DNA of 64,000 bases. It comes from Omnitrophica WOR_2 bacterium RIFCSPHIGHO2_02_FULL_48_11 (GTDB taxonomy: Bacteria > Omnitrophota > Gorgyraeia > Zapsychrales > GWA2-47-8). The notes beneath the pieces are model-generated. The model saw only the letters and a program-made list of their open reading frames with translations, was not told where the DNA came from and searched no databases. How positions within the stretch are numbered: the stretch's first letter is position 1; each line of letters opens with the position of its first letter. Below, in pieces: positions 2,083 to 39,874 of the stretch. Made by a program: the position numbers and the translations under genes. The DNA is taken from the NCBI GenBank assembly GCA_001805615.1, contig MHGP01000073.1:28156-92155 (forward strand), given 5' to 3'.

Positions 2083-2470
2083 TGTATCCCGGTAATGCGG
2101 GACGTTATTCAGCGGGTAGCGGGTAGAACCGCTAAACGCTGAGTAAAGGGATTTCCGCCATCCGCCAAAATTTGTGGCGGAGCGGACCCGCTAAGTTGTT
2201 TGGCGGGAGAGCTACAGTGACGATGCTTTACAGCTTATCGCTGTAAGGAGTGAAACGAGCAATCTCTACATGGAGCAAGGCCAAATAGGGAAAGACCTCC
2301 GTCGCTTTGCTTCGCAAAGCGAAGCAGCGGAGGGCGAGGTCATCCGCCTCGCCACTATTTCCGGGTAGGCCGCAAGAGTCAGGAGAGCAATCTCTTGAGT
2401 GAGTGGGATAACCGCCCATCATGCCTAAAACATCATGGGGTACATAACTCGGCTTATTGGTCTGCTCGTA
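2016..2470 (+). ncRNA. rnpB: RNase P RNA, bacterial type A
   Basis: P1 is GAGCAGACC (2017-2025) pairing with GGTCTGCTC (2459-2467). P3 hairpin CCTCGGTG-TTTCA-CACCGGGG. P4 5' strand is GGAGGAAAGTCCGAGCTCC. GGAGCAAGGCCAAATAGGG is identical to E. coli M1 RNA. 3' ACATAACTCGGCTTATTGGTC matches ACAGAACCCGGCTTATCGGTC. Ends are approximate to +/-5 nt. Confidence 0.85.
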
Positions 2471-2515
2471 AATATCGGCATACGCTTCAATAAAAATTAA
2501 TCAGGAGGAAGTTCG

Positions 2516-20704: not shown

Positions 20705-20706
20705 CG

Positions 20707-22274: not shown

Positions 22275-22294
22275 GGCAAGGGCATTGTTTTGTA

Positions 22295-22323: not shown

Positions 22324-22375
22324 CAAACCAGTGAAAGATTTTTAATTTTTTAAGAAAATTCGGAGGGGAACTTTT

Positions 22376-22972
22376 ATGGGAAGCGAAAAAAATCAATGGA
22401 TGTTATGGGTGATTGTCATAGGGGTGGTGATTGTTACGCTGATCGCCTTCAATTATCACGGCGATAAATCAGACACGATCCCTTTAAGTGAAATTTTTCC
22501 GGAAGAGGTAGTTGCGACCGAAGACCAGAATATTGAATATGAGTTTGTGGACGGTCCGCAGGCGCAAGCCCCGGCAGCCGCGGCTCCGGTTGCGGCGGCG
22601 AACGTAAAACCGGCTGCGGCCAAACCGGCCCCCTCAAAGTTTAACGCGGCAGCTGTCTCGGCCAGGGCGCTTCAGCCGGCAGTGACTCCGGGACCGGCCA
22701 CGGTGACGGCACCGGCAGCCCCGGTCGTAAGCGGCGACTATTCGATCCAGGTGTTGTCGTCCAAGGACAAAGCTGCCACCGAGAAATCTTTAGGAAAAGT
22801 CCAAGCCAAAGGCCATGCGGCGTATATCGTGACCCGGGATATGGGTGAAAAAGGGACCTGGTATCGGGTGAATGTGGGACCGTTTCAGACAAAGGCGCAG
22901 GCGGATGAATATTTGCCCAAGGTGCAGGCGGATTACAAAGACAGTTTTGTCATCGGCGGCAAAAAGAAATAA
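22376..22972 (+). CDS. SPOR-domain cell-division protein (FtsN/DedD-like)
   Basis: One TM, an Ala/Pro-rich linker, and a C-terminal SPOR domain (YSIQVLSSKDKAATEKSL...GTWYRVNVGPFQTKAQA). Confidence 0.8.
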   Translation: MGSEKNQWMLWVIVIGVVIVTLIAFNYHGDKSDTIPLSEIFPEEVVATEDQNIEYEFVDGPQAQAPAAAAPVAAANVKPAAAKPAPSKFNAAAVSARALQPAVTPGPATVTAPAAPVVSGDYSIQVLSSKDKAATEKSLGKVQAKGHAAYIVTRDMGEKGTWYRVNVGPFQTKAQADEYLPKVQADYKDSFVIGGKKK

Positions 22973-22995
22973 AATAGATAAAGGAGTATAAAGTT

Positions 22996-23289
22996 ATGCG
23001 ACATTTTTTAGTTTTAGCGATGCTGGTTGTGTTAACGGCAGGCTGCTCAACCGCCACAAAAGGCGCGGCGGTGGGTGCTATCGGCGGCGGCGCGTTAGGC
23101 GGGATCATCGGCAACCAGTCCGGTAATGCCGGGACAGGAGCGGCGATCGGCGCGGCAGCCGGGGCTATTACGGGGATCATCGTTGCCGAAAAAATGGCTG
23201 ATAAATTTTGTCCGGTTTGCGGTGCGACCTACAATACCAACGACCAGTTCTGCCCGAAGGACGGGACGGAGCTCAAAGAAAAACAATAA
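22996..23289 (+). CDS. glycine-zipper lipoprotein with C-terminal CxxC...CPxDG zinc ribbon
   Basis: Lipobox LTAGC. A G/A-rich glycine zipper (GAIGGGALGGIIGN...). C-terminal FCPVCGATYNTNDQFCPKDGTEL. Confidence 0.7.
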   Translation: MRHFLVLAMLVVLTAGCSTATKGAAVGAIGGGALGGIIGNQSGNAGTGAAIGAAAGAITGIIVAEKMADKFCPVCGATYNTNDQFCPKDGTELKEKQ

Positions 23290-23397
23290 TAAGTTATCGG
23301 CTATCAGTCGTCAGCTATCAGCTTTACTTGCTGCAAGTAGGAATTAATGGTTTTTGCTGAAGGCTGAAGGCTGTAAGCTGAAAGCCAAATAAAAATT

Positions 23398-23601
23398 TTG
23401 CAATCTAATATCCGTACCATTCTGCGTTGGTTCCATCTTACTGTCGGATTGCTTCTTCTCTGCTACATCTATTCGCCATTTTCGCAATACCTCGCCTTTC
23501 AAATTTTTGTCAAATTCATCGCGATCCCGCTGGTCGTTCTCTCGGGATTGTGGATTTGGAAGTTCGCGGCGTTTAATAAGTTTTTCAAGATTGGGTTTTG
23601 A
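23398..23601 (+). CDS. small membrane protein (hypothetical)
   Basis: 67-aa ORF with two hydrophobic helices. Preceded by low-complexity repeats. Confidence 0.3.
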   Translation: MQSNIRTILRWFHLTVGLLLLCYIYSPFSQYLAFQIFVKFIAIPLVVLSGLWIWKFAAFNKFFKIGF

Positions 23602-23683
23602 AAACCGTTGGAGGATGTGACTCACGAGAAACGGAGATTTATTTAAATAGCATTTTGCTCGAAATCAGAAGGGCGAAGAGGGT

Positions 23684-24010
23684 ATGTGGATGATTGAAGG
23701 ACTTTTAGCAATTTTGTTTTATATTGTGGGAGTCTGTGCGTCGCTAAAAATAAAATCTTTTTTGGAAATCCCAATAAAAGACTCGAGACTCCCCAATTTA
23801 AAATTACATGTATTAGTTTTGGTCATTTTGTTCTTATTTTTTTGGAATCATCTTTTCTCGAATAATAAAAATCTAGTGCTTTTTTCTGTTTTTTTATTAT
23901 GGGGACCTTATCCCCAGTCTTCATATCAGAAATTCGAGAATGTTTTCAAGTCGATAAGAAGAGGCTTGATACAATTAGATCTTTGGTCATTATATTGGCT
24001 TTCCCATTAA
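23684..24010 (+). CDS. hypothetical membrane protein (AT-rich island), possibly the 5' part of a frameshifted gene
   Basis: 108-aa multi-TM ORF in a region of clearly lower GC than the flanks. It overlaps the next ORF by 112 nt in another frame. There is a T7 homopolymer at about 23887. Confidence 0.35.
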   Translation: MWMIEGLLAILFYIVGVCASLKIKSFLEIPIKDSRLPNLKLHVLVLVILFLFFWNHLFSNNKNLVLFSVFLLWGPYPQSSYQKFENVFKSIRRGLIQLDLWSLYWLSH

Positions 24011-24666
24011 CTTTAGGCCTTCTTAAGGATGTGGCATCTAAGAATAAAGACATAGAAAGGGATATTGGTAATGTCGTTGAGCGCATTGATAATTTAAAGC
24101 AAGATGCCAAGTCAGATAAGTTGTATTATAGCAGTCTTGTAAAAGCAAAGAATGAAACAATGGATACACTTGAACGAAGCTATTTTGAGAAAAGAATCCT
24201 ATCTTTCCAGCTATATTTTTTAAATACCGAGGATTTTGTTAAAAAAATACCTTTGTGTAAACCCAATGTCAATTGCACTGAATATGAAACGGAACAGTTT
24301 AACAATATAGAAAGTATTTATGATCAGAGAGAGCACTCGTTATGGGTTACAAAGGCCAAGGTGGCGTACTTGCTGCGATTTACTACAAGTGAGGTGCTTA
24401 AAAAAACCAATGAGGTGTCAGGGAGAAATCTTGATTGGGAAAAAATTATTGGCGCTTTATTAGATAGAATGACATCTAGGGAGGAATTTCTCGTGGTTAG
24501 TAAAACCGCATTGGATTCATTTAGAAGTTTAGTTCCAGACTTTAAGAGGATATCTCCAGTTCCAAGCAAAGAGAATCCAGCTACCGTATTTGACTTTGAT
24601 GAGGCTATAGCGTATTGGAATAATAACAAGAATTTAATTCTTAGTAGACTAAAAGCGGTGCCATGA
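23899..24666 (+). CDS. hypothetical protein (AT-rich island)
   Basis: 255-aa ORF with one N-terminal hydrophobic segment. No motif recognised. Followed by the AAAGAATGGTCTGATTTTTTT 3' motif. Confidence 0.45.
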   Translation: MGTLSPVFISEIRECFQVDKKRLDTIRSLVIILAFPLTLGLLKDVASKNKDIERDIGNVVERIDNLKQDAKSDKLYYSSLVKAKNETMDTLERSYFEKRILSFQLYFLNTEDFVKKIPLCKPNVNCTEYETEQFNNIESIYDQREHSLWVTKAKVAYLLRFTTSEVLKKTNEVSGRNLDWEKIIGALLDRMTSREEFLVVSKTALDSFRSLVPDFKRISPVPSKENPATVFDFDEAIAYWNNNKNLILSRLKAVP

Positions 24667-24694
24667 AAGAATGGTCTGATTTTTTTAAGATATT

Positions 24695-24780
24695 GGAGAA
24701 ATAAGAATGGGTTCATCCGGCTTTAATTTTGTTATCACCTGGGGATTCTTGGGATTGGGACTGGGAATTCTTTTGGTCAT
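24695..24780 (+). repeat. 86-bp direct repeat, copy 1 (RBS plus the first 24 codons of a small membrane protein gene)
   Basis: GGAGAAATAAGAATGGGTTCATCCGGCTTTAATTTTGTTATCACCTGGGGATTCTTGGG[A/C]TTGGGACTGGGAATTCTTTTG[G/A]TCAT. 84 of 86 nt are identical to 25918..26003. Confidence 0.9.
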
Positions 24781-24838
24781 AAAAAGGGGTCAAGTCCCTT
24801 TTTCCTTTTTAATGAGCATTGGGAGGGAGGAGCGATGA
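24707..24838 (+). CDS. 43-aa single-TM peptide (truncated paralog of 25930..26229), or a coupled upstream ORF or pseudogene fragment
   Basis: MGSSGFNFVITWGFLGLGLGILLVIKRGQVPFSFLMSIGREER. Its stop overlaps the ATG of the downstream MORN gene (ATGA). Confidence 0.35.
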   Translation: MGSSGFNFVITWGFLGLGLGILLVIKRGQVPFSFLMSIGREER

Positions 24839-25758
24839 ACTTTAAAAAAGTTTATATCCAATTCTTTATGGTGTTTGCTTTTTGCTTGGCGGTCAGTCAT
24901 TCTGCATCTGCCCTCTGTGGTCGTTTCGGGGATGACCAGATGGATGATTTTCTCGAGGCGGACATCGTTGTCATAGGGCAGGCTTCCGGCGTGACCAAGA
25001 CGAGTGATCATTACGCTTCTACCACTCAGGGAGCACGATTCAAGATCGTTGAGATTTTGAAAGGAAACGCTCGCGGGACGATCACGGCCTACCGTTTTGA
25101 ATGCAGTGGCCATTCATTTCAAGAAGGCGGTGGGTACATTATTTTTGCCGTCAAAAATAAGCAGGGCGGTTATGATGTCCGGCAGGCCTCGCCGGCCGCT
25201 GGGGAGTCTTATAATGAACAAATGGAGTCCCCAAAATCCGCTGAAAGTAAACTTTCCGAACTCCGGAATATCTCGCAGTTTTATAAAAAGGTCATTCTCG
25301 CCAATGGCGACGGACAGATGCAGACGCATTACGACAGCGGACAGGTCAAGGTTGAGAGGAATTACAAAAAAGGCAAGCTTGACGGTGATTACCAGGTTTT
25401 TTTCCCGAACGGGCAGGTCAAAGGCCGGGTGCATTACGTCGCCGGGACGAAGGATGGAGGATCCAGCTGGTATTATGAAACCGGCAAGGAGTGGTACATG
25501 TGCTCTTATAAGGAAGGCTACGAGGACGGGGTCTGCAAACTGTTTGACCAAAACACCGGTCAGGTCGTGGTCGAAAGGACCTTTCGCGGGGGCGAAGAGA
25601 TGGGGGTGGTCTATTACAAAAACACTGGAAAGCTGGAGTACAGAGATGTGCTCAATGCCTCTGGGGGCTATGACCGGACCTATTATGATGAAAAGGGATC
25701 AGTGACCCGCACGGTCTCCGATTATGCTAAGCCGCAGCCCAAGGTAAAGAACCGCTAA
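24835..25758 (+). CDS. secreted MORN-variant (YwqK-family) repeat protein
   Basis: Signal peptide. The C-terminal half has about five repeats of the form G..k.y..nGq..G..h.Y...g (YDSGQVKVERNYKKGKLDGDYQVFFPNGQVKGRVHY...). Confidence 0.7.
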   Translation: MNFKKVYIQFFMVFAFCLAVSHSASALCGRFGDDQMDDFLEADIVVIGQASGVTKTSDHYASTTQGARFKIVEILKGNARGTITAYRFECSGHSFQEGGGYIIFAVKNKQGGYDVRQASPAAGESYNEQMESPKSAESKLSELRNISQFYKKVILANGDGQMQTHYDSGQVKVERNYKKGKLDGDYQVFFPNGQVKGRVHYVAGTKDGGSSWYYETGKEWYMCSYKEGYEDGVCKLFDQNTGQVVVERTFRGGEEMGVVYYKNTGKLEYRDVLNASGGYDRTYYDEKGSVTRTVSDYAKPQPKVKNR

Positions 25759-25814
25759 GAGATTTTTGGGGTTGCAAAAAAAAGGGACGATTTTATTTTA
25801 GATTTCCAAAGAAA

Positions 25815-25835
25815 GGGTCTGAGCTGACCCCTTTT
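25815..25835 (+). terminator. weak hairpin within the recurring 3' motif
   Basis: GGGTC-tgagct-GACCC then CTTTT, embedded in AAAGAAAGGGTCTGA. This is the third occurrence of the AAAGAAnGGTCTGA 3'-flank motif. Confidence 0.3.
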
Positions 25836-25917
25836 AAAAAATTAGGAAAATAATTTAGAGGAAATCCCGCGGCGCGCAAAAGCGCACTTGGGACGATGCA
25901 AAATCCGCGTCGAAAAC

Positions 25918-26003
25918 GGAGAAATAAGAATGGGTTCATCCGGCTTTAATTTTGTTATCACCTGGGGATTCTTGGGCTTGGGACTGGGAATTCTTTTGAT
26001 CAT
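25918..26003 (+). repeat. 86-bp direct repeat, copy 2
   Basis: See copy 1. This copy begins the intact 100-aa gene. Confidence 0.9.
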
Positions 26004-26229
26004 CGCTTTGTTGTGGTGTCGTGATGTTAACCGGAAGTTAAACTACATTTTGATGCGGATCTATAAGTTCGGTAGCGATAAAGGAAAAGAGGATAACGAT
26101 CTTAATTCAGTTGAGCATCGTCCCGTTGCCGGCACGGGCAAGGCTGTCTCACCGTTAGTTGCCGTTGGTATTATCATCGGCGCGATCATTCTTTTATTTT
26201 TAGTGCCGCTCTGGCTCATCAACAGATAA
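25930..26229 (+). CDS. small two-TM membrane protein
   Basis: ATG at 25930 with RBS GGAGAAATAAGA. MGSSGFNFVITWGFLGLGLGILLIIALLW... and a second TM at the C-terminus. 100 aa. Confidence 0.6.
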   Translation: MGSSGFNFVITWGFLGLGLGILLIIALLWCRDVNRKLNYILMRIYKFGSDKGKEDNDLNSVEHRPVAGTGKAVSPLVAVGIIIGAIILLFLVPLWLINR

Positions 26230-26306
26230 TTCCTAAAGAAATGGTCTGATTTTTTGCCGATTTTCTGGAGCGATTTGCCCGGGAGAGTGTGTCTAGGTAT
26301 GTCCCG

Positions 26307-26335
26307 TTGACAAATTTTAGGCCAGAGATTATACT
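26307..26335 (+). promoter_or_regulatory. consensus sigma70 promoter TTGACA-N17-TATACT
   Basis: TTGACA at 26307-26312, a 17-nt spacer, and TATACT at 26330-26335. It drives the PEP-CTERM gene. Confidence 0.6.
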
Positions 26336-26397
26336 TGCGCTATTGTTTGGGGGTAAATATTTTAAGATCACAAAAAATTATTCACGAGGAGAGAGTC

Positions 26398-27045
26398 ATG
26401 AAGGCGATACAAAAGGTTTTGGTCGGATTTTTAGTAAGCTTGGCGGTGCTTGTTGTACCGCAAAAAGCGCAGGCGATCGTTGTTTTTGATAATACAGAAA
26501 ATTTTTTTACATCAGGCAGTTATCTGCTGATGACCCAGGGAGCCCCTTTTGATTTTGATAATGATCAGGCTGCAGGGTTCACAGTCACAGGCGGATCTTA
26601 TGCGCTGAACTCGATAGAACTTCCGGTGACTTTTTCTCAGGGTCCTAACGAATTTGATCTTTGGCTGGTAAATGATAACGGAGGTCAGCCCGGCAGTCTT
26701 TTGGAGAGCTTTCATTTCAGCAATCCTCCGGAAGGAACGTATTATACTTGGTTGACCGCAAACTCGGCATCTAACCCGGTGCTCAACGACGGCAATTTGT
26801 ATTGGGTCGTCGGTTCTGCGACCGGACCGGATGCGGTTATCGGCTGGAATGTGAGCCGTACAAATGGATATGCGGCGCATACCGCAGAGGACGGAAACGG
26901 GTGGCATGTAGGTTCTGACTGGAATCGGGGCGCCTTTCGCGTCACCGGAAGTGAACCTGGCCAAGCGCCTGTCCCCGAACCGGCCACGTTATCTTTATTC
27001 GGTGCCGGGTTAGCCGGATTCTTGTTGCGCAGACGTAAAAAGTAA
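26398..27045 (+). CDS. PEP-CTERM sorting-domain secreted protein
   Basis: The start is re-picked at 26398 after GAGGAGAGAG. Signal peptide ...PQKAQA. The C-terminus is PVPEPATLSLFGAGLAGFLLRRRKK, i.e. a PEP motif, a TM helix and a basic tail. Confidence 0.8.
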   Translation: MKAIQKVLVGFLVSLAVLVVPQKAQAIVVFDNTENFFTSGSYLLMTQGAPFDFDNDQAAGFTVTGGSYALNSIELPVTFSQGPNEFDLWLVNDNGGQPGSLLESFHFSNPPEGTYYTWLTANSASNPVLNDGNLYWVVGSATGPDAVIGWNVSRTNGYAAHTAEDGNGWHVGSDWNRGAFRVTGSEPGQAPVPEPATLSLFGAGLAGFLLRRRKK

Positions 27046-27129
27046 ATTTGTAGGAAATAATTTTTGTAACGTAAAAGAGGCGATTTCATGATCATGAAAT
27101 CGCCTCTTTTCATTTATTGTTTTTTTTAT

Positions 27130-29100
27130 TTAATATAACGCGGCGCCATCTTTGCAAATACATTCTGAGGTACAGAGTTTTGTGGTCGGACAGCCATCCG
27201 GAACATTTTTTGGATCGCATTGTTCCCCCGGATCCATCCTACCGTTACCGCATTTACTCACGCACATACACCCGACACATTCTTTATTAGGGTCGGCGCA
27301 AAGTTGAGCTGGAAGTTTAGTCGTATCGCACTGCGGTTTTTCAGTCAATTGCTTACTATTCATTTTGCAATAATAAGCAGGGTTAGGGATACACTGACAA
27401 AAAACATCGCATATTTTAACCGGATCTGTAGGATTAGCCGGATTGCACTCCGCGTCGTTTTGGCACTGCGGTTCTCTATAAGTAGCATTTTTTCTACAAA
27501 GATAAGGGGGTGGCGGGCCTTCTGTCTCTGTGATCGCCGGGGGTATTTCGTTTGTCGCTGGAGGAGTCGGAGTAGTGTAGGTTATAGTAATATCCGTCTG
27601 GGGCGGCGGACGTAAAGTTTCATTCGACCCCCCGCCAATGACACATTTGAATGCACAAGTATGATAGGCCTTTAACATCAACGGCAGATTTAAATAAAAT
27701 TTGGTATGCGTGTCCGGCCCGGCAAAAAGATGCTCAGCCTTGCTTCCCTCTACCGGATTATTTTGCGACGGCCCGGAAAGGACTCCGTCGCCGGATTGAA
27801 AGTTTGCATCCGTCGTGTACCAATGCACCACCTTAACCGACTCTGGACGTTTATAAGGACCGAATCCATCAGTCACTTCCTGCCATGGTTTAAAAGACAG
27901 GAACCAATTGATCATGGTCGTAATGGCGCTGCCCATGGGATACTTATTTCCCAAAGAATTGAATCCATCAAAGGATTTGCCTAAAAGCGGTGTCGCATAG
28001 GTGTGCACACGGATAGGCATATTGAATTCTTTGACCACACTGTCTAATTTTGAAGCGGCTTTTGCGGCGACGACACCGCCAAAACTCCATCCGACGACGG
28101 CGATTTCTCTATAAGGCCTGATCTGCATCGGGTCTATGTTCTTCAGGCTCTCCCTTATAAATGTGACTAACTTGTCAGAGATCTCGTCCGAAACTTCGTT
28201 TCCCTCCCACGGAAACAGGACAAAATCAAAGCACGACATGCTTTCTGTCTGCGTAGCCCATGCGACAAAATCTTTCCAAGCGGTCGCATCGTTGCCTAAT
28301 CCCGTGATAAAAACAACCAGAACCATGCAATTTTTTCCGTTTGTACCGTAATTAAATTTACCCGGCACGCCAAAAAACGGCACTCTTCCCAAGGTATCCG
28401 GGGGCAGTTTAAATTTATTAAGGTCATCGCTATAAATTTTATTGCTTAGCGCAATGCTTCCCGGCGGAAGACCCATAAGCGATTCCAAAGTTTTGAAATG
28501 TTCCTGCTCCTTGACCGGAAGCTGACTTGAGGCAACAAAAACCCCCAACCCGTTAGGATGGATGGCCATAAATTTTCCAGGATTACTCACATCGGGAATG
28601 ATGATGTTTTCCGGGACTATGTAAGCGAGAATCAATGTCCCGGTCACATCGTAAACCACATAATAATTTCCAAATCGTTTTTCGAGCCGATCCCAGCGAA
28701 GAGCATTATTATAAGGAAGGGCACAATCCCCCTGGCAAGGACCTACCGCAGGGAACATTTCTACGTGGGCAGGAACCGCCTTCGTAAGATAAGGGCCGGT
28801 CGTGATTTTAATGAGCGGCTGGAGGGGTAAATAATCTTTCTTATTCTTAAAACTTATTTCATAAAAATCGCTGAAATATCTGACGGTAACCGTGTCGTCC
28901 GGAGATCCGTTAGGGTCCCTGATCTCGACCGTTGTCCCGTAATCGAAAACCCCACCGTTGACCGTTTCTTTCCAGTCATAGCGGTGAACGTAAGGGGTAA
29001 TATCCCAAGGATTGTCTTTGAGAATGGTTTGTGCGTGGGCGGCGGGAATACTAAGGATAAAAAGAAAACAGGTCAGAACGGTCAATTTCTTAAAATACAT
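27130..29100 (-). CDS. secreted alpha/beta-hydrolase (lipase/esterase GxSxG) with Pro/Thr linker and C-terminal Myxococcus-type cysteine-rich repeats
   Basis: Signal MYFKKLTVLTCFLFILSIPAAHA. Nucleophile elbow VVGWSFGGVVAA. PT-rich linker TITYTTPTPPATNEIPP. The C-terminal ~130 aa hold about 24 Cys, including CGNGRMDPGEQCDPKN (the CGxGxxxxGExCD repeat signature). Confidence 0.7.
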   Translation of the reverse strand: MYFKKLTVLTCFLFILSIPAAHAQTILKDNPWDITPYVHRYDWKETVNGGVFDYGTTVEIRDPNGSPDDTVTVRYFSDFYEISFKNKKDYLPLQPLIKITTGPYLTKAVPAHVEMFPAVGPCQGDCALPYNNALRWDRLEKRFGNYYVVYDVTGTLILAYIVPENIIIPDVSNPGKFMAIHPNGLGVFVASSQLPVKEQEHFKTLESLMGLPPGSIALSNKIYSDDLNKFKLPPDTLGRVPFFGVPGKFNYGTNGKNCMVLVVFITGLGNDATAWKDFVAWATQTESMSCFDFVLFPWEGNEVSDEISDKLVTFIRESLKNIDPMQIRPYREIAVVGWSFGGVVAAKAASKLDSVVKEFNMPIRVHTYATPLLGKSFDGFNSLGNKYPMGSAITTMINWFLSFKPWQEVTDGFGPYKRPESVKVVHWYTTDANFQSGDGVLSGPSQNNPVEGSKAEHLFAGPDTHTKFYLNLPLMLKAYHTCAFKCVIGGGSNETLRPPPQTDITITYTTPTPPATNEIPPAITETEGPPPPYLCRKNATYREPQCQNDAECNPANPTDPVKICDVFCQCIPNPAYYCKMNSKQLTEKPQCDTTKLPAQLCADPNKECVGCMCVSKCGNGRMDPGEQCDPKNVPDGCPTTKLCTSECICKDGAALY

Positions 29101-29382
29101 GAGGCTCCTTTAGGTATAAATATTTCTTAAAAGATATCACATAAAGTATAGTCTATAAAGGAGCCATTGGATATACAGAAAGGGTGTTTTGGGGAAACCG
29201 CTTTCTTCATTCGGTTCAATAAAAAATTCTGCGCCAGAGATGAGGCTCAGGATTATCTTCCGCATAAATCTGGACTAAAAGAAAGAATTGAATATAATAA
29301 AGATTATTAAGCAGCAGAATCCCCTGCCATAAATGAGGCAAGTGATAATACTACATTCGCATCGTAAGAAAGGGGAATCGCA

Positions 29383-29637
29383 TTGGCAAAATTGACGCTG
29401 GACCTGCATGAGATCTTTAATAAAGGGCGCGACATTGACCGCAGCCTGAACGATATCATCAACGAAGCCGTCGCAAAACGGATCACGCTCCTGGAGATCA
29501 TCCCGGGCAAGGGAAGCGGCCAGCTCAAGAAGAACGTGCTGCGGTTCTTGGACCAGAAACATATCCGTGCGCTGTATCATCGGATCGAGAAGGACGACAA
29601 GAATTTCGGACGTATTTTTGTGCATTTCAGATTTTGA
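29383..29637 (+). CDS. stand-alone Smr-domain protein
   Basis: TTG start after AAAGGGGA. LTLDLHE (LDLHG-like) and IIPGKGSG (the Smr xTGKG motif). 84 aa. Confidence 0.55.
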   Translation: MAKLTLDLHEIFNKGRDIDRSLNDIINEAVAKRITLLEIIPGKGSGQLKKNVLRFLDQKHIRALYHRIEKDDKNFGRIFVHFRF

Positions 29638-29827
29638 GAGAAAAGGAGAGGGGGGGTATGCGGCTTGGAAAATTGAGTGCGCGTCCCCGGAAATCTGAAA
29701 CTCAAATTAAAATATGACCCCGAAGAAAGATTTCAGAGCGAATGGTACCGCTATTATAAGACGATGTTTTCGGGATGGATGAGTAAGTTCATTCAGGGGA
29801 AGGACTTTAAATAAAAGGAGAAAGAAA

Positions 29828-30892
29828 ATGCTGTATCTTAAGGTAAGAAACATCACTATTTTAATTTTTGTTTTTCTTGTTGCTTCTGGAAATGGCCGGA
29901 GCGAGGCTGACCTGTTGATGTCGGATTTGTCCTTAGCCGCTGAAGCGGGCGTGGGGAGCAATTTGCGCGGATTATCTGGGGCAGCGGAAATGTTTGCCAA
30001 CGCCAATCAAGGCCGCTATCCGGCGAGTATTTCCGATTTGGTCAGTGCCAATCCACCGTATCTTTTTGAAGATTGTTGCGGTAAGACCATCGAAGGGTTT
30101 CAATATTCCTGTAATTTTTCGCCGAAAGGATATGAATTCACCGCAACAGCCGTCGATAGTCAAAAGTTCGGTCCAAGAATTTTTAAAGCTGCGACCGGTC
30201 AGCAGATGACCGGCCCGGAAATGAAGATGGTCAATGATCCTAAATACGGTTCTAAACCGGCGTACCAATATCTTTTTGTTTCAGACAATAAAAGTTTTAC
30301 AAAGAAAGCTATGGCTAACGGCGTTGCGATTGTTTATTTTGGGTTTGATGAAAATACTCCCTTTGAAGAAACTCAAAAATATCTTAAGTCCGGAACCATT
30401 CAAGACATTTATGATATGGACAATATGATAAGAGAATATGCTAATAAAAACGGCTATGCGTTTATCTATGAGGCCATCCAGTGTCAGTGCAATGAAGAGG
30501 ATATTACCCATGACCTTAGGGAATATTTATATAAAGCCAAATATAAGAAAGATCGCCCTATTCAGGTAGATGGGGTCCAGGTGAGAAATGACGCTCAGGG
30601 GCAAAGGGTCGAGACGTCATTTATGAACAATAAGAAAAACGGGCCGGAAAAGACGTATTATGATACCGGTGAGTTATATGAAGAAAAGAATTATAAGGAC
30701 GGAAATTATGATGGTATCTTTAAACAATATTATAAGGACGGAACCCTGATGGCTGAGTACCATTTTAAGAATGGCGAATCTGCGGGGGAAACAAGAACGT
30801 ATTATGAAGATGGAAAATTGCGGTCGGTTACCGGGAGCAGACCTGACGGAGGCACGGTGATATACGACCGTGAAGGCAATGTGCGTCAATAA
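29828..30892 (+). CDS. secreted protein with C-terminal MORN-variant (YwqK-family) repeats
   Basis: Signal peptide. The C-terminal third has repeats KTYYDTGELYEEKNYKDGNYDGIFKQYYKDGTLMAEYHFKNGESAGETRTYYEDGKL. The N-terminal two thirds are unassigned. Confidence 0.65.
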   Translation: MLYLKVRNITILIFVFLVASGNGRSEADLLMSDLSLAAEAGVGSNLRGLSGAAEMFANANQGRYPASISDLVSANPPYLFEDCCGKTIEGFQYSCNFSPKGYEFTATAVDSQKFGPRIFKAATGQQMTGPEMKMVNDPKYGSKPAYQYLFVSDNKSFTKKAMANGVAIVYFGFDENTPFEETQKYLKSGTIQDIYDMDNMIREYANKNGYAFIYEAIQCQCNEEDITHDLREYLYKAKYKKDRPIQVDGVQVRNDAQGQRVETSFMNNKKNGPEKTYYDTGELYEEKNYKDGNYDGIFKQYYKDGTLMAEYHFKNGESAGETRTYYEDGKLRSVTGSRPDGGTVIYDREGNVRQ

Positions 30893-30920
30893 GGACAATC
30901 AAGGACAATCATGGACAATC
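30891..30920 (+). repeat. 10-bp tandem repeat (AAGGACAATC x2 + ATGGACAATC)
   Basis: It spans the 29828 gene stop and the ATG of the KH gene. Confidence 0.8.
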
Positions 30921-31174
30921 TTAAAATATCCGTACTATTAGAGCGCGACGATTTTAAAATGGAGATCATCGGCCGCGACGCCAGAAATATACGCTGTTTT
31001 GAACAGGAAACAGGCGTTAAGGTTGTCATTGATGATACGCCGCAGCGGGTTTTTCTTGTCGGTACGGATCTGCCGAGCTTAGAGAACGCGCGGCGTATTA
31101 TGGAGAAACTTGTCCGGGATAAAAAAATAACCGAGGCTAAGATCAAAGAGTATAAGAAATTGTGTAGTGAGTGA
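30911..31174 (+). CDS. small KH-domain RNA-binding protein
   Basis: IIGRDARNIRCFEQETGVKVVID resembles a KH GxxG segment with a degenerate motif. 87 aa. Confidence 0.5.
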   Translation: MDNLKISVLLERDDFKMEIIGRDARNIRCFEQETGVKVVIDDTPQRVFLVGTDLPSLENARRIMEKLVRDKKITEAKIKEYKKLCSE

Positions 31175-31323
31175 AAGGGCAGCTTAGCAGAGACATTACC
31201 CTCAAAATATTCCCTTAATATTCCCCTTTTTGTTTCCTCTCTTGAGAACTTTCTTGCAAACGTTTTCTTGTCGGACGCCTTCCCCCCTTGTTACCCTCAA
31301 TTTTATAGATTAAGCTTTTAATA

Positions 31324-31410
31324 TAGAGACGAAAGGGCAAACCTGTCGAGAGACAGGGACGCAAAGCCACGTGGCCCCGATGTAACGTCGGGGTGGCCGG
31401 GCTACCGAAA
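31324..31410 (+). promoter_or_regulatory. c-di-GMP-I (GEMM) riboswitch aptamer
   Basis: GGGCAAACC-UGUC-GAGA-GACA-GGGACGCAAAGCC ... GGGCUACCGA. The core GGGCAAACC, the GNRA-capped P2 and GACGCAAAGCC are identical to the Vibrio Vc2 aptamer. The 3' GGGCUACCGA matches Vc2 GGGUUACCGA. Confidence 0.75.
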
Positions 31411-31449
31411 ATAATCAACAAACCAAAGGTAGGCCGGTTTTTTATTTTT
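31397..31449 (+). terminator. candidate expression-platform terminator overlapping the aptamer 3' strand
   Basis: CCGGGCTACC (31397-31406) pairs with GGTAGGCCGG (31428-31437) with one mismatch across a 21-nt loop. It is followed by TTTTTTATTTTT. The 5' arm is part of the aptamer. Confidence 0.45.
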
Positions 31450-31460
31450 GGAGGGTCAGA

Positions 31461-33962
31461 GTGAAGGATAAATTTCAATATAATGATTTTCGTATTTACG
31501 GGTTACTATTTTTTGCTCTCAGCGTTTCTCTTATATTTCTCCCAACCCCTATCTTTGCCGAAGCACAACTTAAAATTACAAACGAAGGAACACTCTATAT
31601 AAGTGCCGATAACGACGCTGATAAATTTTTTGCTCTGGGATACGGTTATGCTAAGGCCATGCCGGACAGATTGGGGGCCAAGATAGCCCGGGACTGCAAC
31701 TATAGCCGTCATGAAAATGGACAAAACTACAACATTTTAAATGGGGTGGCCTATCTCTATCGACCCCCGGCGGTCGATTTTGACGAACGTGGAAGGCTAT
31801 TGCCGATCCCCAGCGGAAAGATGCCCACACCGGTTATGGTTGATATGGCCCGTCATTTTGACGGCACGTGTCAGGATATGGAGGAAGTCTGGAATTCTCT
31901 GAGCGTTGAGCAGCGAAATCATTTTAGCAATTTGGCTGCCGGTTATAATTATTATTTCGAAACAAACTGGACTGCAGGAGACGCAGTTGCTGTCAAATAC
32001 CCATTTTTGCAAAATTTTAAAGGAGCTGAACTTAACCCAAAAATCCTCCCCTTTGAAGGACCAGGCTTTCAATCTCTGTATGAGTGGAAGACATTAATAG
32101 AGATTGTACAAAACCCCCCTAAAAATTATAAGGAGGCTGTACAGCTGCAAAATTCTCAGCCGATCTATGCCACGGCTTCTTTTAATTCTCACCTCAATGG
32201 CCCGTCTCTGGCCAAGGACACTCTGGCGGTCAATTTTGGGTCAATCCATGTGCCCATGTATAGCCAAGGTCAGGTCGTAACTGTAGCCATTTCTGATGAG
32301 GATCCCATTACCGGAGAAGTCAAACGTACAATGGTCGGTGGAGCGGTCGAATTAACTTTACCGACTATCTTTAGTAAATGGGACGAGTTGGGGAAGGGGA
32401 CATCCTTGAATGTCGTTGCAAAAAATTTGCAAATACCAACCATCTACGCCATCAAAATCCCACGGGGATCGTTGACTCAGTATATTGATCCTCTAAGTGG
32501 CCGATCCGTCCCGTATGAAACGAAAATTTATACCTTTAGGACCGGAAATGGAAAGGCCTATACCCGCACGGTTAAAAAAGTTCCTGGTTTCGGTAAAGTC
32601 TTTCATATCGGTTCGGATTACGCATTGACCTTTCATAAAGATGTTCAAAAGGATCTCTGGGGGTTATTTACTCATGAACTTTATACTGCTGAAAATACGG
32701 CTGCGGCGGTCCGCAAGGCCTTTCAGGATAGACAGGGGAACCCTCTGGTTAGCGGATTTACCTTCACGGCGGTTCATGTTGACTCCCATAATCCTATTTC
32801 TTCCAGCACCGGAACAGCGTACAGCGTTGGTTTTGTTCCCCGGTTTAATAATCCTAATAAAGTGACGGAGTTAATTCTGGCTAAGCGCGATAAAATTTTG
32901 CCGGCTAATGTGGACACCCAAGCTAAAGGCATCTTGTCTTTAAATGAAATTCAAACGATCCTCGCTCCGGGAGAAGTGGGTCCGATGGTGAATGGGAATA
33001 CGCCTTTATCAACTGTTTTAGGTCATAAGCAGCAATATTTGCATCCAAAAAATTCCGAGATTTCTTACCCTCTCCATTACGGGGGGGTCACCGAACCTTT
33101 TGAAAGAGGACATTCCATAACAGGAAAGGTCCTCACGGAACGATTGGTCAAAAAGGGAGATGTGACCTGCGATGATTACTTTACAGGCGTGGTGGATAGT
33201 TACGATAATGTGACCTTAAGGGATTCTTTAAAAATTTATTATTCTGCGATAGAAAAGTATGGCATGGCTCTCGTCAATGATTCAGCGCCCAAGGCATGGA
33301 TTATGGGGACTTTATTGGATGCCGTTATGCATTATTGGGATTTTCAGGCCAGAGGAGACGATCCCTTGGCGGCGGTGTTCGGGGTTTTTTATTACCTCCT
33401 GGATAAAGAAATTTCAAATCTGCAAAACACTGATCCCGCTTTAGCTGCTGAACTGAAAGAATTTCTGGGGGCTTCCGTTATCATGGCAGAGACCGGTTCT
33501 GAACCTTCGCTTTCTTTTGAAGCGGCAAAAATTATCACCGATAAAATTATTGATTCCGTTGATACCCTCATTCAATCCGGTTGGAGAAAATTAGCGGACA
33601 TGCAACAAACTTGCTTTTGGAGTCAAGACGATAAAGGTTATAAGTTAGAATGCTACCCGTTCGACCGAGGTTCCAACGGGCCCAACGCCAATGGTGCGGG
33701 TTGGGATCCGGTCGCCAGAAAATTCACCCGTGGCGGCGGCAACCAATTTCCCATCTTTTCTTGCTATACCAAAGATGGGCTCAAAGTGAAATATCAGAAC
33801 AATATCAGCGGTTGGACCCTGGGCTCCGGCCCGGCGGCCCATACCGCCAGGAATTTCGCTCAAGGCGTCTGGAGTGAATTCAATGAATTTGAGCACGTGC
33901 CGCCCGCAGAAGTCATTTTTGAGAAAAACTTTGGGCATTCCCGCCAACCGGTTCTCCCATAG
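31461..33962 (+). CDS. large secreted protein of unknown function (833 aa)
   Basis: GTG start after GGAGGG. N-terminal signal/TM (YGLLFFALSVSLIFLPTPIFAEA). No motif recognised across 800 aa. Confidence 0.7.
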   Translation: MKDKFQYNDFRIYGLLFFALSVSLIFLPTPIFAEAQLKITNEGTLYISADNDADKFFALGYGYAKAMPDRLGAKIARDCNYSRHENGQNYNILNGVAYLYRPPAVDFDERGRLLPIPSGKMPTPVMVDMARHFDGTCQDMEEVWNSLSVEQRNHFSNLAAGYNYYFETNWTAGDAVAVKYPFLQNFKGAELNPKILPFEGPGFQSLYEWKTLIEIVQNPPKNYKEAVQLQNSQPIYATASFNSHLNGPSLAKDTLAVNFGSIHVPMYSQGQVVTVAISDEDPITGEVKRTMVGGAVELTLPTIFSKWDELGKGTSLNVVAKNLQIPTIYAIKIPRGSLTQYIDPLSGRSVPYETKIYTFRTGNGKAYTRTVKKVPGFGKVFHIGSDYALTFHKDVQKDLWGLFTHELYTAENTAAAVRKAFQDRQGNPLVSGFTFTAVHVDSHNPISSSTGTAYSVGFVPRFNNPNKVTELILAKRDKILPANVDTQAKGILSLNEIQTILAPGEVGPMVNGNTPLSTVLGHKQQYLHPKNSEISYPLHYGGVTEPFERGHSITGKVLTERLVKKGDVTCDDYFTGVVDSYDNVTLRDSLKIYYSAIEKYGMALVNDSAPKAWIMGTLLDAVMHYWDFQARGDDPLAAVFGVFYYLLDKEISNLQNTDPALAAELKEFLGASVIMAETGSEPSLSFEAAKIITDKIIDSVDTLIQSGWRKLADMQQTCFWSQDDKGYKLECYPFDRGSNGPNANGAGWDPVARKFTRGGGNQFPIFSCYTKDGLKVKYQNNISGWTLGSGPAAHTARNFAQGVWSEFNEFEHVPPAEVIFEKNFGHSRQPVLP

Positions 33963-34058
33963 CCGATTTCTATCCTGCCGAAAAAAACATTGCCAAACTG
34001 TTTTAGAATAGGTATAATCACACCCTAATAAATCCTGACTGAAATAAATCTTTAAATT

Positions 34059-35702
34059 ATGAATCCCGTAGCTACTCCATCTTCGCTTGAACAATTCCTG
34101 CAAAATGTCGGCATTAAGCAGTGGAAAAATCTTTTTTACAATTTATCCTACGATGAACTCTTTAAGCACGAAACCGATCCCGCGTTAGAAGGGTATGAGC
34201 GGGGCACGGTTACGACCTCCGGCACGGTGGCTGTCGATACCGGCAAGTTCACCGGCCGTTCTCCCAAAGACAAATATATCGTTGATGAACCGACCTCGCG
34301 GACCAATGTGTGGTGGGCGGATGATGCCTGTGCCGGTTCGGACAACAAACACCTTTCCGCTGAGGCCTGGCAGCATCTCAAGGATATTTCCGTCAAACAG
34401 CTGAACGGGAAAAAATTGTACGTCATGGACGGTTTTTGCGGGACAAATCTGCAAACGCGGATGAGCGTACGGTTGGTGACGGAAGTGGCCTGGATGGCGC
34501 ACTTTTTTAAGAACATGTTTATCCGTCCGACGGCCGAAGAGTTGAAGAATTTTAAGCCCGACTGGACGATCCTGAACGCCTGCAAGACATCCTGCCAGGA
34601 TTTTGCCAAATACGGTCTGCGTTCCGAAGTCTTCGGCGCCTTCCACATCGCCGAGCGGATGACCGTGATCGGCGGCACCTGGTACGGCGGAGAAATCAAA
34701 AAAGGTATTTTTTCCATCATGAATTATTTTTTGCCGCTCAAAGGCATCGGCGCCTTCCATTGCTCGGCGAACATGGGCAAAGACGGCGATACGGCGCTCT
34801 TTTTCGGCCTTTCCGGGACCGGTAAAACTACGCTTTCAACCGATCCTAAGCGCGCGTTGATCGGTGACGATGAGCACGGTTGGGACAATGACGGTGTTTT
34901 TAATTTTGAAGGCGGATGTTATGCCAAATGTATCGGACTGACCCGCGAGCGCGAACCGGACATCTTTGACGCGATCCGCCGCGACGCGCTTTTGGAAAAC
35001 GTTGAGGTCGATGCGAACGGCCAAGTCGATTTCAATTCCAAGAAAAAAACGGAAAATTCCCGCGTCTCTTATCCGCTGAACCATATTGCCAATATTGTTA
35101 AGCCGGTTTCCAAGGGCGGTCATCCGAAGCATATTATTTTTCTTACCTGCGATGCGTTCGGGATCCTGCCGCAAATCTCCAAACTGACCAAAGAACAGGC
35201 GATGTATCATTATTTAAGCGGGTACACCGCCAAAGTCGCGGGCACCGAACTCGGCGTCACCGAACCCAAGGCTGCGTTTTCGTCATGTTTCGGGCAGGCG
35301 TTCTTGCTGGTGCATCCGACCAAGTATGCGGATATTTTAGGGAAGAAGATGGATGAGCACGGCTCGCAGGCGTATCTGATCAATACCGGCTGGTATAAAG
35401 GAAAGTACGGTGTCGGCCAGCGGATCCCCTTAGTTGAGAACCGCCGCGCGATCGATGCGGTCTTTAACGGGGCCTTTGATAAGGCGGAATTCGAAACGCT
35501 GCCGATTTTTAATTTGAAATTCCCCAAAACCCTCCCCGGCGTCGATCCGCAAACCCTGCACCCGCGCGATTCCTGGCCCAACAAAGAAGAATATGACCAG
35601 ATGATCCGCAAACTCGCGCAGATGTTCAGTGACAACTTTAAAAAATTTGAAACGACCGAAGAAGGCCGCATCCTCGCTGCGGCTGCCGGACCCAAATTAT
35701 AA
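34059..35702 (+). CDS. pckA: phosphoenolpyruvate carboxykinase (ATP)
   Basis: [19 protein letters not shown] and kinase-1a [12 protein letters not shown]. 547 aa. Confidence 0.9.
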
Positions 35703-35748: not shown

Positions 35749-36030
35749 ATGGCCAGAGCCAGCGCAAGACATATCCTCGTTGCTACCGAAGCAGAATGTT
35801 TAAGATTAAAGGATGAAATCGCCGCCGGTAAAAAATTTGCCGATGTGGCCAAGCAGCATTCCAAATGTCCTTCCGGTAAAAAGGGCGGAGAGTTGGGAGA
35901 ATTCTCGCGCGGCCAAATGGTGCCGGAATTTGACCGGGTGGTTTTTCAGGAGGAAGTCGGCAAAGTTCATGGGCCGATCAAGACACAGTTCGGTTTTCAC
36001 CTGGTGGAGATCACCAAGCGGGTAGATTGA
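35749..36030 (+). CDS. ppiC: parvulin-type peptidyl-prolyl isomerase (PpiC/Par10)
   Basis: ARHILV..., GGELGEFSRGQMVPEFD and GFHLVEI. 93 aa. Confidence 0.85.
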   Translation: MARASARHILVATEAECLRLKDEIAAGKKFADVAKQHSKCPSGKKGGELGEFSRGQMVPEFDRVVFQEEVGKVHGPIKTQFGFHLVEITKRVD

Positions 36031-36065
36031 TGTCAGAACGGGATTAAAAATTTTTAAATTATTTA

Positions 36066-36094
36066 TTGACATCAGATAACAATTCGTTTATACT
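36066..36094 (+). promoter_or_regulatory. consensus sigma70 promoter TTGACA-N17-TATACT, leaving a ~125-nt cold-shock 5'UTR
   Basis: TTGACA at 36066-36071 and TATACT at 36089-36094. cspA starts at 36225. Confidence 0.6.
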
Positions 36095-36224
36095 TTTATT
36101 AACAATTAAGTAGCAAGTAAGGTAGAAGAAATCACTAGCCGTAAGGTGTGTAGGTCAATCGCCTTGCGGTTTTTTCTTTTATGTGTACTTACTTGCAAAT
36201 ATTATTTAAAGGAGGTTTCAAGAA

Positions 36225-36425
36225 ATGGTTAAAGGAACAGTGAAGTGGTTCAACAATCAAAAAGGCTACGGATTTATTACACCCGAATCAGGCAAAGATG
36301 TTTTCGTGCATCATAGCGCGATTCAGGGTGACGGATATAAATCGCTGACCGATGGTCAAGCGGTTGAGTTCGAAATTACCCGTGGACCAAAAGGTGAACA
36401 AGCCACCAACGTTGTAAAACTATAA
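36225..36425 (+). CDS. cspA: cold-shock protein (CspA family)
   Basis: [15 protein letters not shown] (RNP1) and VFVHHSAI (RNP2). 66 aa. Confidence 0.95.
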
Positions 36426-36457
36426 CAACGAAGGTAGGTTCATGGTTGATTGATTGG

Positions 36458-36493
36458 GAAGAGGGGCAGACTCTTTTAGGGTTGCCCCTCTTC
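36458..36493 (+). terminator. stable hairpin after cspA (terminator-like, no U-tract)
   Basis: Perfect 10-bp stem GAAGAGGGGC / GCCCCTCTTC with a 16-nt loop, then CTTACG. Confidence 0.4.
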
Positions 36494-36546
36494 TTACGTA
36501 AGCTCACCGTTGAGTGAGTATAAAATTTTTTAAGGAGGAAGTTTAA

Positions 36547-37740
36547 TTGAGTTTTTATAATCTAGGTATTGCTCCAAAGCTAATCGAGATGATGGAACGT
36601 CTCAAATTTAAGATCGCAACCCCTATTCAGCACAAGGCTATTCCTTTGGCGCTGGAGGGAAAAGATATTATTGGCATCGCCCAGACCGGGACTGGAAAGA
36701 CCATGGCCTTCGCGATCCCGATGATTCAGCAGCTTGCCCAAAACAAAAATCATGCCTTAGTGCTCGTGCCGACCCGTGAGTTAGCCCTGCAGGTTGAGGA
36801 AAGTATTCGTAAGATAGCCACGCCGTTTAATATCCGGACAGTTTCTTTGATCGGCGGAGAGCCGATTCAAAATCAGCTGCGGTCTTTGCAAAAGAGTCCA
36901 CGTGTGCTGATCGCCACTCCGGGCCGGTTATTGGATTTGATGGAACAAAAGAAAGTGCGTCTCAATGACGTGAATATTTTGGTCCTGGATGAAGCCGATC
37001 GTATGTTGGATATGGGATTTGCTCCCCAGATCGATGAAATTTTAAGATCCGTGCCCAAGGACCGGCAGACCATGCTTTTTTCGGCAACGATGCCGGCAGA
37101 AATTATGCGGATGGCGACGTCCCATATGAAAATTCCGATTCAGGTGGAAATGGCTCCGACCGGGACAACCGCGGAGCGGGTCACGCACGAATTGTTCATC
37201 GTCCAGCAAGAAATGAAAAGGGAATTGTTAGGAAAAATATTGGTCAAATTTCGTGGTTCGGTTCTGCTCTTTTGCCGTACCAAAATGGGCGCTAAACGGA
37301 TCACCAGTGCCTTGCGCCATTTAGGGCATAGTGCCGCAGAGATCCATTCGGACCGCTCGCTTGCGCAGCGCCGGCAGGCCTTGGAAGGATTCAAATCCGG
37401 AAAACACCGCGTGCTTGTCGCGACGGACATTGCTTCCCGCGGGATCGATGTGAAGGGGATTGAATTGGTGGTTAATTATGACCTTCCTGACCAGGCAGAA
37501 AATTATGTGCATCGCATCGGCCGTACCGGCCGGGCCGGATCTCCTGGCCACGCGATCTCATTTGCCAGGCCGGATCAGCGCGGTGATGTGAGCAGTATCG
37601 AACAGTTGATCAAGACCACGCTGCCGATTTCGCAACATCCGGATCTTCCAGTGATGGATTTTAATAAACCACAAAATGTCTTCAGCTTTAACCGTTACCG
37701 CCCGCAACGCGGCGGAAGAAGTAGACGCGGCCGCAGATAA
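36547..37740 (+). CDS. DEAD-box ATP-dependent RNA helicase with Arg-rich tail
   Basis: TTG start. Q-motif. AQTGTGKT, PTRELA, DEAD, SAT, HRIGRTGR. The C-terminus is RPQRGGRSRRGRR. Confidence 0.9.
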   Translation: MSFYNLGIAPKLIEMMERLKFKIATPIQHKAIPLALEGKDIIGIAQTGTGKTMAFAIPMIQQLAQNKNHALVLVPTRELALQVEESIRKIATPFNIRTVSLIGGEPIQNQLRSLQKSPRVLIATPGRLLDLMEQKKVRLNDVNILVLDEADRMLDMGFAPQIDEILRSVPKDRQTMLFSATMPAEIMRMATSHMKIPIQVEMAPTGTTAERVTHELFIVQQEMKRELLGKILVKFRGSVLLFCRTKMGAKRITSALRHLGHSAAEIHSDRSLAQRRQALEGFKSGKHRVLVATDIASRGIDVKGIELVVNYDLPDQAENYVHRIGRTGRAGSPGHAISFARPDQRGDVSSIEQLIKTTLPISQHPDLPVMDFNKPQNVFSFNRYRPQRGGRSRRGRR

Positions 37741-37765
37741 GTCATCCATTAAAGAGCTAGCTGTC

Positions 37766-38362
37766 ATGTCACAGAATCGCAAGGTCACAAGCAAAAGTTT
37801 GAAAAGACGCTGCGCCTGGGTGCCGGAGGGCGACGCTCTTTATGCGAAATATCATGACACGGAATGGGGCGTGCCGGTCTATGCCGATCAGACGATTTTT
37901 GAATTTCTTGTCTTGGAATCCGCGCAGGCCGGCTTGAGCTGGGTCATCGTTTTACGCAAACGTGAAAATTATCGCAAGGCCTTTGCCAAGTTTGACCCCA
38001 AAAAGGTCGCGCGGTTCACGCCCCAACACGTTACCAAACTTTTACAGAATTCCGGGATCATCCGCAACCGCGCCAAGATCGAGGCCACCATCAATAACGC
38101 GCGGTGTTTTCTTCAGGTGCAAAAAGAATTCGGAACGTTCGCGAAGTATATTTGGAGTTTTGTCTCCGGTAAGCCGCGGTGTAACCGATTCAAAAGCCTC
38201 AAAAATCTTCCCGCCAAGACCCCGCAGGCCGAGGCCTTAAGCCTTGACCTTAAAGCGCGCGGCTTCAAATTCCTTGGGCCCACAGTTATTTATGCCCACA
38301 TGCAAGCCACCGGCATGGTCAATGACCACACCATAGATTGCTTCCGCTATAAAGAGGTTTAG
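37766..38362 (+). CDS. tag: DNA-3-methyladenine glycosylase I
   Basis: The start is re-picked at 37766 to avoid overlapping the helicase. YHDTEWGVP, FEFLVLESAQAGLSW and C...HxxxC zinc-site residues. Confidence 0.85.
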   Translation: MSQNRKVTSKSLKRRCAWVPEGDALYAKYHDTEWGVPVYADQTIFEFLVLESAQAGLSWVIVLRKRENYRKAFAKFDPKKVARFTPQHVTKLLQNSGIIRNRAKIEATINNARCFLQVQKEFGTFAKYIWSFVSGKPRCNRFKSLKNLPAKTPQAEALSLDLKARGFKFLGPTVIYAHMQATGMVNDHTIDCFRYKEV

Positions 38363-39863: not shown

Positions 39864-39874
39864 TCTTAAACGAT

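Follow-up and report, generated by a model that had tools for sequence, protein, structure and literature searches.

The locus and its genomic setting

The whole stretch of DNA analysed here, 64 kb long and referred to below as the window, carries a gene for an orphan secreted protein of 833 amino acids whose leader holds a c-di-GMP-I (GEMM-I) aptamer and, overlapping its 3′ side, an alternative hairpin followed by a U-tract (Table 1). The aptamer has the same orientation as the gene and ends 51 nt upstream of it, and the gene is served by a strong ribosome-binding site.

Table 1 Positions of the features discussed, in coordinates of the window
Feature	Position	Strand	Basis or detail
tRNA	694-767		Rfam scan
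tRNA	778-851		Rfam scan
PEP-CTERM protein gene	26335..27045		within the ~11-kb segment
Alpha/beta hydrolase gene, 656 aa	27130..29100	-	within the ~11-kb segment
Possible weak promoter, TTGTTA-17-TAAGCT	31288..31316	+	hexamer scan, 7/12 matches; start would be ~31323-31325
c-di-GMP-I (GEMM-I) aptamer	31327..31410	+	Rfam clan CL00126 match and minimum-energy fold
G20-equivalent	G31336	+	model-consensus alignment
P2 (P1a) arm	31337..31362	+	covariance-model alignment and minimum-energy fold
A47-equivalent	A31363	+	sequence and alignment; conserved G there in the RF03167 consensus
P3 (P1b) arm, short G+C-rich hairpin lacking the 11-nt tetraloop receptor	31365..31403	+	alignment and fold
A91, C92 (C31405) and P1 3′ strand (C31406, G31407)	31404..31407	+	sequence and alignment
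Alternative terminator hairpin, putative	31396..31438	+	fold, pair list verified
U-tract UUUUUUAUUUUU (T6-A-T5)	31438..31449	+	directly after the hairpin, beginning at its last stem position
Shine-Dalgarno GGAGG (31450-31454), 6-nt spacer, GTG start (31461)	31450..31463	+
Orphan secreted protein gene, 833 aa	31461..33962	+	ORF, GTG start
pckA promoter, near-consensus sigma-70-type, TTGCCA-17-TATAAT	33990..34018		11/12 matches
Parvulin-type PPIase gene	35749..36030
DEAD-box helicase gene	36547..37740
Methyladenine glycosylase gene	37676..38362
PilZ protein gene	49984..50964		Pfam PF07238, E 3.7e-10

For the analysis of synteny, pckA neighbourhoods were taken from 80 genomes. The pckA gene of the window is 86% identical to that of the MAG L002 (deposited as 'uncultured Planctomycetales') and ~63-75% identical to those of the other loci kept, which come mostly from Candidatus Omnitrophota MAGs. 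The window is most probably DNA of an Omnitrophota-like member of the PVC group. L002 is collinear with the window on both flanks (17929-22972, pckA and 38774-41395), and for ~11 kb of the window (22972..34059) the syntenic site of L002 (L002 4702..6001) offers no equivalent. This segment has a G+C content of 0.38-0.49, compared with about 0.49-0.54 in most of the flanks. Besides the riboswitch-orphan pair it contains two MORN-repeat genes, the PEP-CTERM and hydrolase genes, Smr and KH genes and two ORFs, of 255 aa and 113 aa, that match no family; neither an integrase nor a tRNA boundary was seen in it. A riboswitch is present in none of the 11 syntenic loci of relatives, and no homologues of the MORN, KH and orphan genes were found at such loci. 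Given that the segment is missing in L002 and that none of the 11 loci has a riboswitch, the cassette is lineage-specific.

A second difference from L002 lies 3′ of pckA (35749..38362), where the three genes for the parvulin-type PPIase, the DEAD-box helicase and the methyladenine glycosylase are absent from L002; the glycosylase gene is present in another of the loci (L077).

The putatively regulated gene and its transcription unit

The N-terminus of the 833-aa protein bears a Sec-type signal peptide, with an n-region rich in K and R, the hydrophobic stretch IYGLLFFALSVSLIFL and a cleavage-like site between IFA and EA. An exhaustive HMMER search of 1.84 billion representative proteins returned only the protein itself, and a word-indexed search of 5.8 billion clusters only a copy of the same protein on a JGI contig of 6.5 kb. 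The description of the product as an orphan secreted protein, given in an earlier note made from the sequence of this locus, is thus borne out. In Pfam, a sub-threshold match to Penicil_amidase involves only the N-terminal 30 residues (19.4 and 16.1 bits, below the cut-off of 21.3), and the GYG..PD.L motif behind it also gives a match of about the same weakness to a TPM-phosphatase chain; an acylase identity was therefore rejected. Indeed, the Pfam and PDB matches of the orphan are sub-threshold, mutually inconsistent and restricted to the first ~60 mature residues, while its C-terminal 610 aa match no family and a search of NCBIfam returned nothing. The single-sequence AlphaFold2 model, with a mean pLDDT of 33.8, is unusable.

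The possible promoter before the aptamer is weak, and a stricter promoter scan returned none on the + strand before the aptamer. Downstream of the KH gene that precedes the leader, the terminator scan found no canonical terminator. As there is neither a convincing promoter before the aptamer nor a terminator after the KH gene, polymerase coming from the MORN/KH genes may read through into the leader, and the switch would then be a conditional gate within an operon. The near-consensus promoter of pckA indicates that the organism uses E. coli-like hexamers, which makes the weakness of the promoter before the riboswitch more notable. At the other end of the unit, a weak hairpin and a T-rich stretch overlap the stop codon of the 833-aa gene; the regulated unit is probably this gene alone.

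A 9-nt direct repeat, AATATTCCC, stands in two copies 2 nt apart (31206..31225) in the spacer that separates the KH gene from the aptamer, and is followed by a T-rich run. The motif occurs three times in the window, a count reached in 10 of 100 shuffles and hence not significant by itself, and the repeat could be a protein-binding site or nothing.

Detection and fold of the aptamer

All 64 kb were scanned with the covariance models of Rfam 15 (4227 families, gathering thresholds), yielding four matches: an RNase P RNA, two tRNAs and one riboswitch. The riboswitch match extends over the full model length (1-80) with a score of 59.5 bits and an E of 1.6e-11. The earlier note had proposed a c-di-GMP-I riboswitch at this place and had named such a scan as its check; the result is positive, within clan CL00126. 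The best-scoring model, and hence the Rfam label, is c-di-GMP-I-GGC (RF03167, gathering score 59). Another member of the clan also scored above its own gathering score at this site and was masked by clan competition; we infer it to be RF01051 (gathering score 35). Folded alone, the 84-nt aptamer has an energy of -38.6 kcal/mol (z -4.05), as good a value being found in none of 200 dinucleotide shuffles, and both P2 and P3 appear in the minimum-energy and in the centroid structure of the isolated RNA. The riboswitch feature is real, far beyond chance.

The motifs on which the proposal had been built, GGGCAAACC (31335-31343), GGGACGCAAAGCC (31356-31368) and GGGCUACCGA (31399-31408), lie where the note had placed them. 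P2 is formed by CCUGUC-GAGA-GACAGG and a GC/GC closing pair: 31342-31347 pair with 31352-31357, and G31337 and C31338 with C31362 and G31361, respectively. Fold and alignment agree on its CUGUC/GACAG stem and on the GNRA tetraloop GAGA at 31348-31351, so that the GNRA-capped P2 claimed for this leader is confirmed. The foldability of P1 and P3, which had been named as a point on which the proposal could fail, was upheld in part. P3 is present in the minimum-energy fold, whereas P1 could have 2 bp only (C31330 and G31331, its 5′ strand, with G31407 and C31406, respectively) and is absent from the energy-minimised folds. The covariance model marks mismatches in its own P1 register; the register given here was taken from relatives that share the CGAAAG junction.

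In the Vc2 aptamer, c-di-GMP is contacted by G20, A47 and C92 (PMC4744006; PMC5888326), G20 being the base that contacts G-alpha (PMC5888326, PMC4744006). The leader studied here has equivalents of all three, C31405 being the equivalent of C92, which is assigned as the Watson-Crick partner of G-beta. The equivalents of C44 and G83, the partners of the interhelical Watson-Crick pair, are C31360 and G31396, which stand at the aligned positions as base identities read from the model alignment. Like Vc2 (RF01051), the RNA has two arms, a GNRA-capped P2 and the core GGCAAACC...GGGACGCAAAGCC...UACCGA. It differs from Vc2 in its P3, which is short, rich in G+C and devoid of the 11-nt GAAA-tetraloop receptor, in its J1/2 junction (CGAAAG), which has one nucleotide less, a trait shared by a subset of relatives, in its P1 of only 2 bp, and in its host, an uncultured Omnitrophota-like bacterium. 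Judged by its sequence, the leader has all the testable features that define the c-di-GMP-I class; of the remaining two, P1 is very short and the C44-G83 tertiary pair is represented by its bases.

Ligand class

The RF03167 label raises the question of which ligand the aptamer would recognize. The 'GGC' of the family name presumably refers to the bases at positions 20, 47 and 92, a reading in line with the model consensus. With this family our RNA shares the short-P3 scaffold (AGCCACG.GGNC ... GCCGGGCU). It departs from the model at two places at which the model has a conserved G: position 47, which directly follows the P2 closing pair and aligns to A31363, and position 91, which precedes C92 and aligns to A31404. 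Both adenines are the base identities of Vc2. In a scan of metagenome contigs for the scaffold pattern, in which either A or G was permitted at position 47, all 121 matches had A. Moreover, when 20 of these A47 aptamers were run through Rfam as controls (loci L084-L141), 19 received RF03167, at 61-80 bits, and the only one labelled RF01051 was the one with a long, receptor-bearing P3. The label therefore follows the short-P3 scaffold, which wins the clan competition, and not a change in the binding pocket. It is thus assigned to ordinary short-P3 A47 aptamers, and automated annotations of 'variant' riboswitches appear unreliable unless the binding-site bases (position 47) are checked.

Two alternatives to c-di-GMP recognition have to be weighed against these data. 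The RNA might be a true GGC variant with an altered pocket, and possibly a different or unknown ligand, as RF03167 is indeed the top Rfam model, at 59.5 bits against its gathering score of 59; with A and not G at positions 47 and 91, with A47 in every one of the scaffold matches and with the same label on nearly all of the A47 controls, we hold this to be very improbable. The aptamer might also sense 3′,3′-cGAMP (c-AMP-GMP), or both cGAMP and c-di-GMP promiscuously, since the GEMM-Ib aptamers of Geobacter, for example Gs1761, have the same fold, the Rfam models do not separate the two, and a single G20A change enables Vc2 to bind cGAMP (PMC7288161). What speaks against it is the base at 31336, a G where GEMM-Ib has an A (A14 of Gs1761, the equivalent of G20) (PMC5888326), and recognition of cGAMP is accordingly improbable, if a little less so than an altered GGC pocket. 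Because the Vc2 contact bases are present and the cGAMP-specifying position holds G and not A, c-di-GMP is the expected ligand. By its binding-site bases the RNA is a canonical c-di-GMP-I aptamer, and it would bind c-di-GMP.

Several metagenome contigs contain two c-di-GMP-I aptamers each: L110 (215-299 and 365-497), L124 (96-176 and 653-735), L133 (871-945 and 947-1008) and L142 (1210-1245 and 1373-1408). In three of them the copies lie close together and share a strand, those of L133 being immediate neighbours. Tandem arrangements have already been described for the c-di-GMP-I class (PMC12452182).

The predicted expression platform

The 5′ arm of the alternative hairpin, GCCGGGCUACC (31396-31406), lies within the aptamer, and its 3′ arm is GGUAGGCCGGU (31428-31438). 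When CCGGGCUACC (31397-31406) is set against GGUAGGCCGG (31428-31437), 9 of the 10 positions are paired. The stem comprises ~10 bp, including a terminal G.U, with one G.G mismatch (31401/31433), and encloses an A-rich loop of 21 nt (31407-31427); the hairpin has a dG of -17.9 kcal/mol and a z of -3.16. Folding revealed no further good partner for GGUAGGCCGG on the 5′ side of the U-tract. A simple terminator scanner did not call the hairpin, as it accepts loops of 3-8 nt only and the loop of 21 nt exceeds this limit. The terminator overlapping the aptamer that had been predicted from the sequence is therefore found as far as the shared pairing and the T-run are concerned, with the qualifications of a G.G mismatch, which the prediction had left out, and of an unusually long loop.

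Terminator and aptamer have 11 nt in common, namely the equivalent of G83, the basal 3′ strand of P3, A91, C92 and the first nucleotide of P1. Since the 5′ arm of the terminator is made of aptamer nucleotides, the hairpin and a ligand-competent aptamer are mutually exclusive, which is the design of a transcriptional ON switch. The arrangement had been called consistent with a c-di-GMP ON switch, and the 11 shared nucleotides supply this ON logic from the sequence, ligand binding and the direction of regulation being predictions in both cases. The placement of a terminator 5′ arm inside the 3′ strand of the aptamer recurs in some related aptamers, most clearly in L128 and L182.

The energies of the competing states depend on the length of the transcript. 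In RNA that reaches to the U-tract, the energy is -47.0 kcal/mol for the terminator state and -38.6 kcal/mol for the aptamer state, a difference of 8.4 kcal/mol in favour of the terminator, so that the switch would be OFF by default and the energy of ligand binding would be needed to turn it ON. In a transcript 20 nt longer, the aptamer combined with a helix between the A-rich loop and the U-tract reaches -52.7 kcal/mol, compared with -49.9 kcal/mol for the terminator fold. With this slight preference for the aptamer, the outcome must depend on co-transcriptional kinetics, and a kinetic decision is usual in transcriptional riboswitches. GGAGG is unpaired in both main states, and no translational component is therefore seen; in the longer fold, the A-rich/U-rich helix reaches into the Shine-Dalgarno sequence as far as its second G.

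Proposed mechanism and its rivals

We consider it likely that the leader of this lineage-specific secreted-protein gene contains a canonical class I c-di-GMP riboswitch that works as a transcriptional ON switch. When no ligand is bound, 31396-31406 would pair with 31428-31438, and the hairpin together with the U-tract would stop the polymerase 12-20 nt short of the start codon. In the presence of c-di-GMP, the ligand would be held by G20 (31336), A47 (31363) and C92 (31405), and the junction of P1 and P3 would be locked; the bound aptamer would then withhold the 5′ arm of the terminator, and the polymerase would read through into the 833-aa gene. Several points count against this reading. As the gene is an orphan and the 11 syntenic loci have no riboswitch, there is no orthologous leader by which to judge the conservation and covariation of the platform. 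The long loop and the mismatch, which escaped the scanner, the 2-bp P1, the slightly more stable aptamer fold of the longer transcript, the lack of a convincing promoter and the lack of GGDEF, EAL and HD-GYP motifs in the window also weigh against it.

Even with a real aptamer, the platform could be something other than a ligand-gated terminator: it could act on translation or on RNA stability, be of the OFF type, or consist of an aptamer followed by the terminator of the MORN/KH operon. A loop of 21 nt and a mismatch are unusual in a terminator, the standard scan did not call the hairpin, there is no clear promoter between the KH gene and the aptamer, and the helix of the longer fold touches the Shine-Dalgarno sequence. 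Furthermore, how Vc1 and Vc2 themselves work is not settled (PMC4744006). However, a free-standing terminator would not be expected to have a 3′ arm complementary to the strand of the ligand pocket, a complementarity that marks a switch; in an OFF switch, terminator and bound aptamer would have to exist together, which the shared nucleotides make impossible; and an effect on translation fits poorly with a Shine-Dalgarno sequence that is free in both main states. We therefore regard another kind of platform as unlikely, while giving it more weight than any of the other alternatives. That the whole element resembles a riboswitch by chance, or is a decayed relic without function, is harder still to maintain. 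Its score is barely above the threshold of RF03167, its P1 is weak and it has no orthologue, yet an E of 1.6e-11 was obtained with the whole window against 4227 families, the bases of the binding site and of the tertiary contact are all intact, a matching terminator arm is present, and the element sits at the expected distance before a gene of the same orientation with a strong ribosome-binding site. A relic is the least credible of all the explanations considered here. The ON switch thus remains our preferred reading.

Relation to known switches and significance

The nearest known counterpart of the RNA is the canonical c-di-GMP-I riboswitch, with Vc2 of Vibrio cholerae as its prototype. Riboswitches of this class are common, and ON switches that use a terminator are known from the leaders of secreted-protein genes; many GEMM-Ib riboswitches of Geobacter, too, are ON switches that work by a terminator and precede genes for secreted or surface proteins. 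A close functional analogue of our locus is the Vc1 riboswitch upstream of gbpA, in which a class I c-di-GMP aptamer also precedes the gene of a secreted protein and exerts positive control over the surface-colonisation factor GbpA of V. cholerae (PMC4744006). Unlike Vc1, which has no recognisable terminator or anti-Shine-Dalgarno sequence (PMC4744006), the leader described here has an explicit overlapping terminator, and the protein that follows it is unrelated to GbpA and has no assigned function.

The switch is conceptually not new but a fresh example of a well-known device. As the leader is compact, with the 5′ arm of the terminator lying wholly in the aptamer and no separate anti-terminator, it offers a clean minimal construct for work in vitro. 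Its interest lies also in providing a regulatory clue, that is, high c-di-GMP and a sessile or attached way of life, to a genuine orphan from a poorly understood uncultured lineage. We propose tentatively, as a possibility that we put below even chances, that the secreted protein without detectable relatives is recently acquired or fast-evolving and is gated by a c-di-GMP ON switch, in a variable segment of lower G+C that is rich in surface and secreted genes (MORN-repeat, PEP-CTERM, hydrolase). If this were true, the orphan would be a new c-di-GMP-induced factor of the surface, of adhesion or of host interaction, and the riboswitch a functional handle on a protein that cannot otherwise be annotated.

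Other c-di-GMP components and RNAs of the window

The PilZ gene that the earlier note had pointed out in the window is real: besides its Pfam match, both binding motifs are intact, RxxxR as RRALR (residues 13-17) and [D/N]xSxxG as NISASG (residues 40-45). The PilZ domain is followed by a transmembrane helix and a coiled coil of ~150 aa, which suggests a membrane-anchored c-di-GMP receptor. The intact motifs indicate that the organism uses c-di-GMP. The gene lies 18.5 kb from the switch, and no functional link between the two is evident or could be demonstrated. No GGDEF, EAL or HD-GYP motifs were found in the 64-kb window, and a literature search for a link between Omnitrophota and c-di-GMP riboswitches returned none, the only matching work being on ComFB.

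Among the other RNAs, the RNase P RNA is of the bacterial type A (2016..2472, 138 bits). It lacks a 43-nt segment of the model and has large insertions relative to it, with about 99 nt in the place of 10 in the model and an extra hairpin near 2300-2335.
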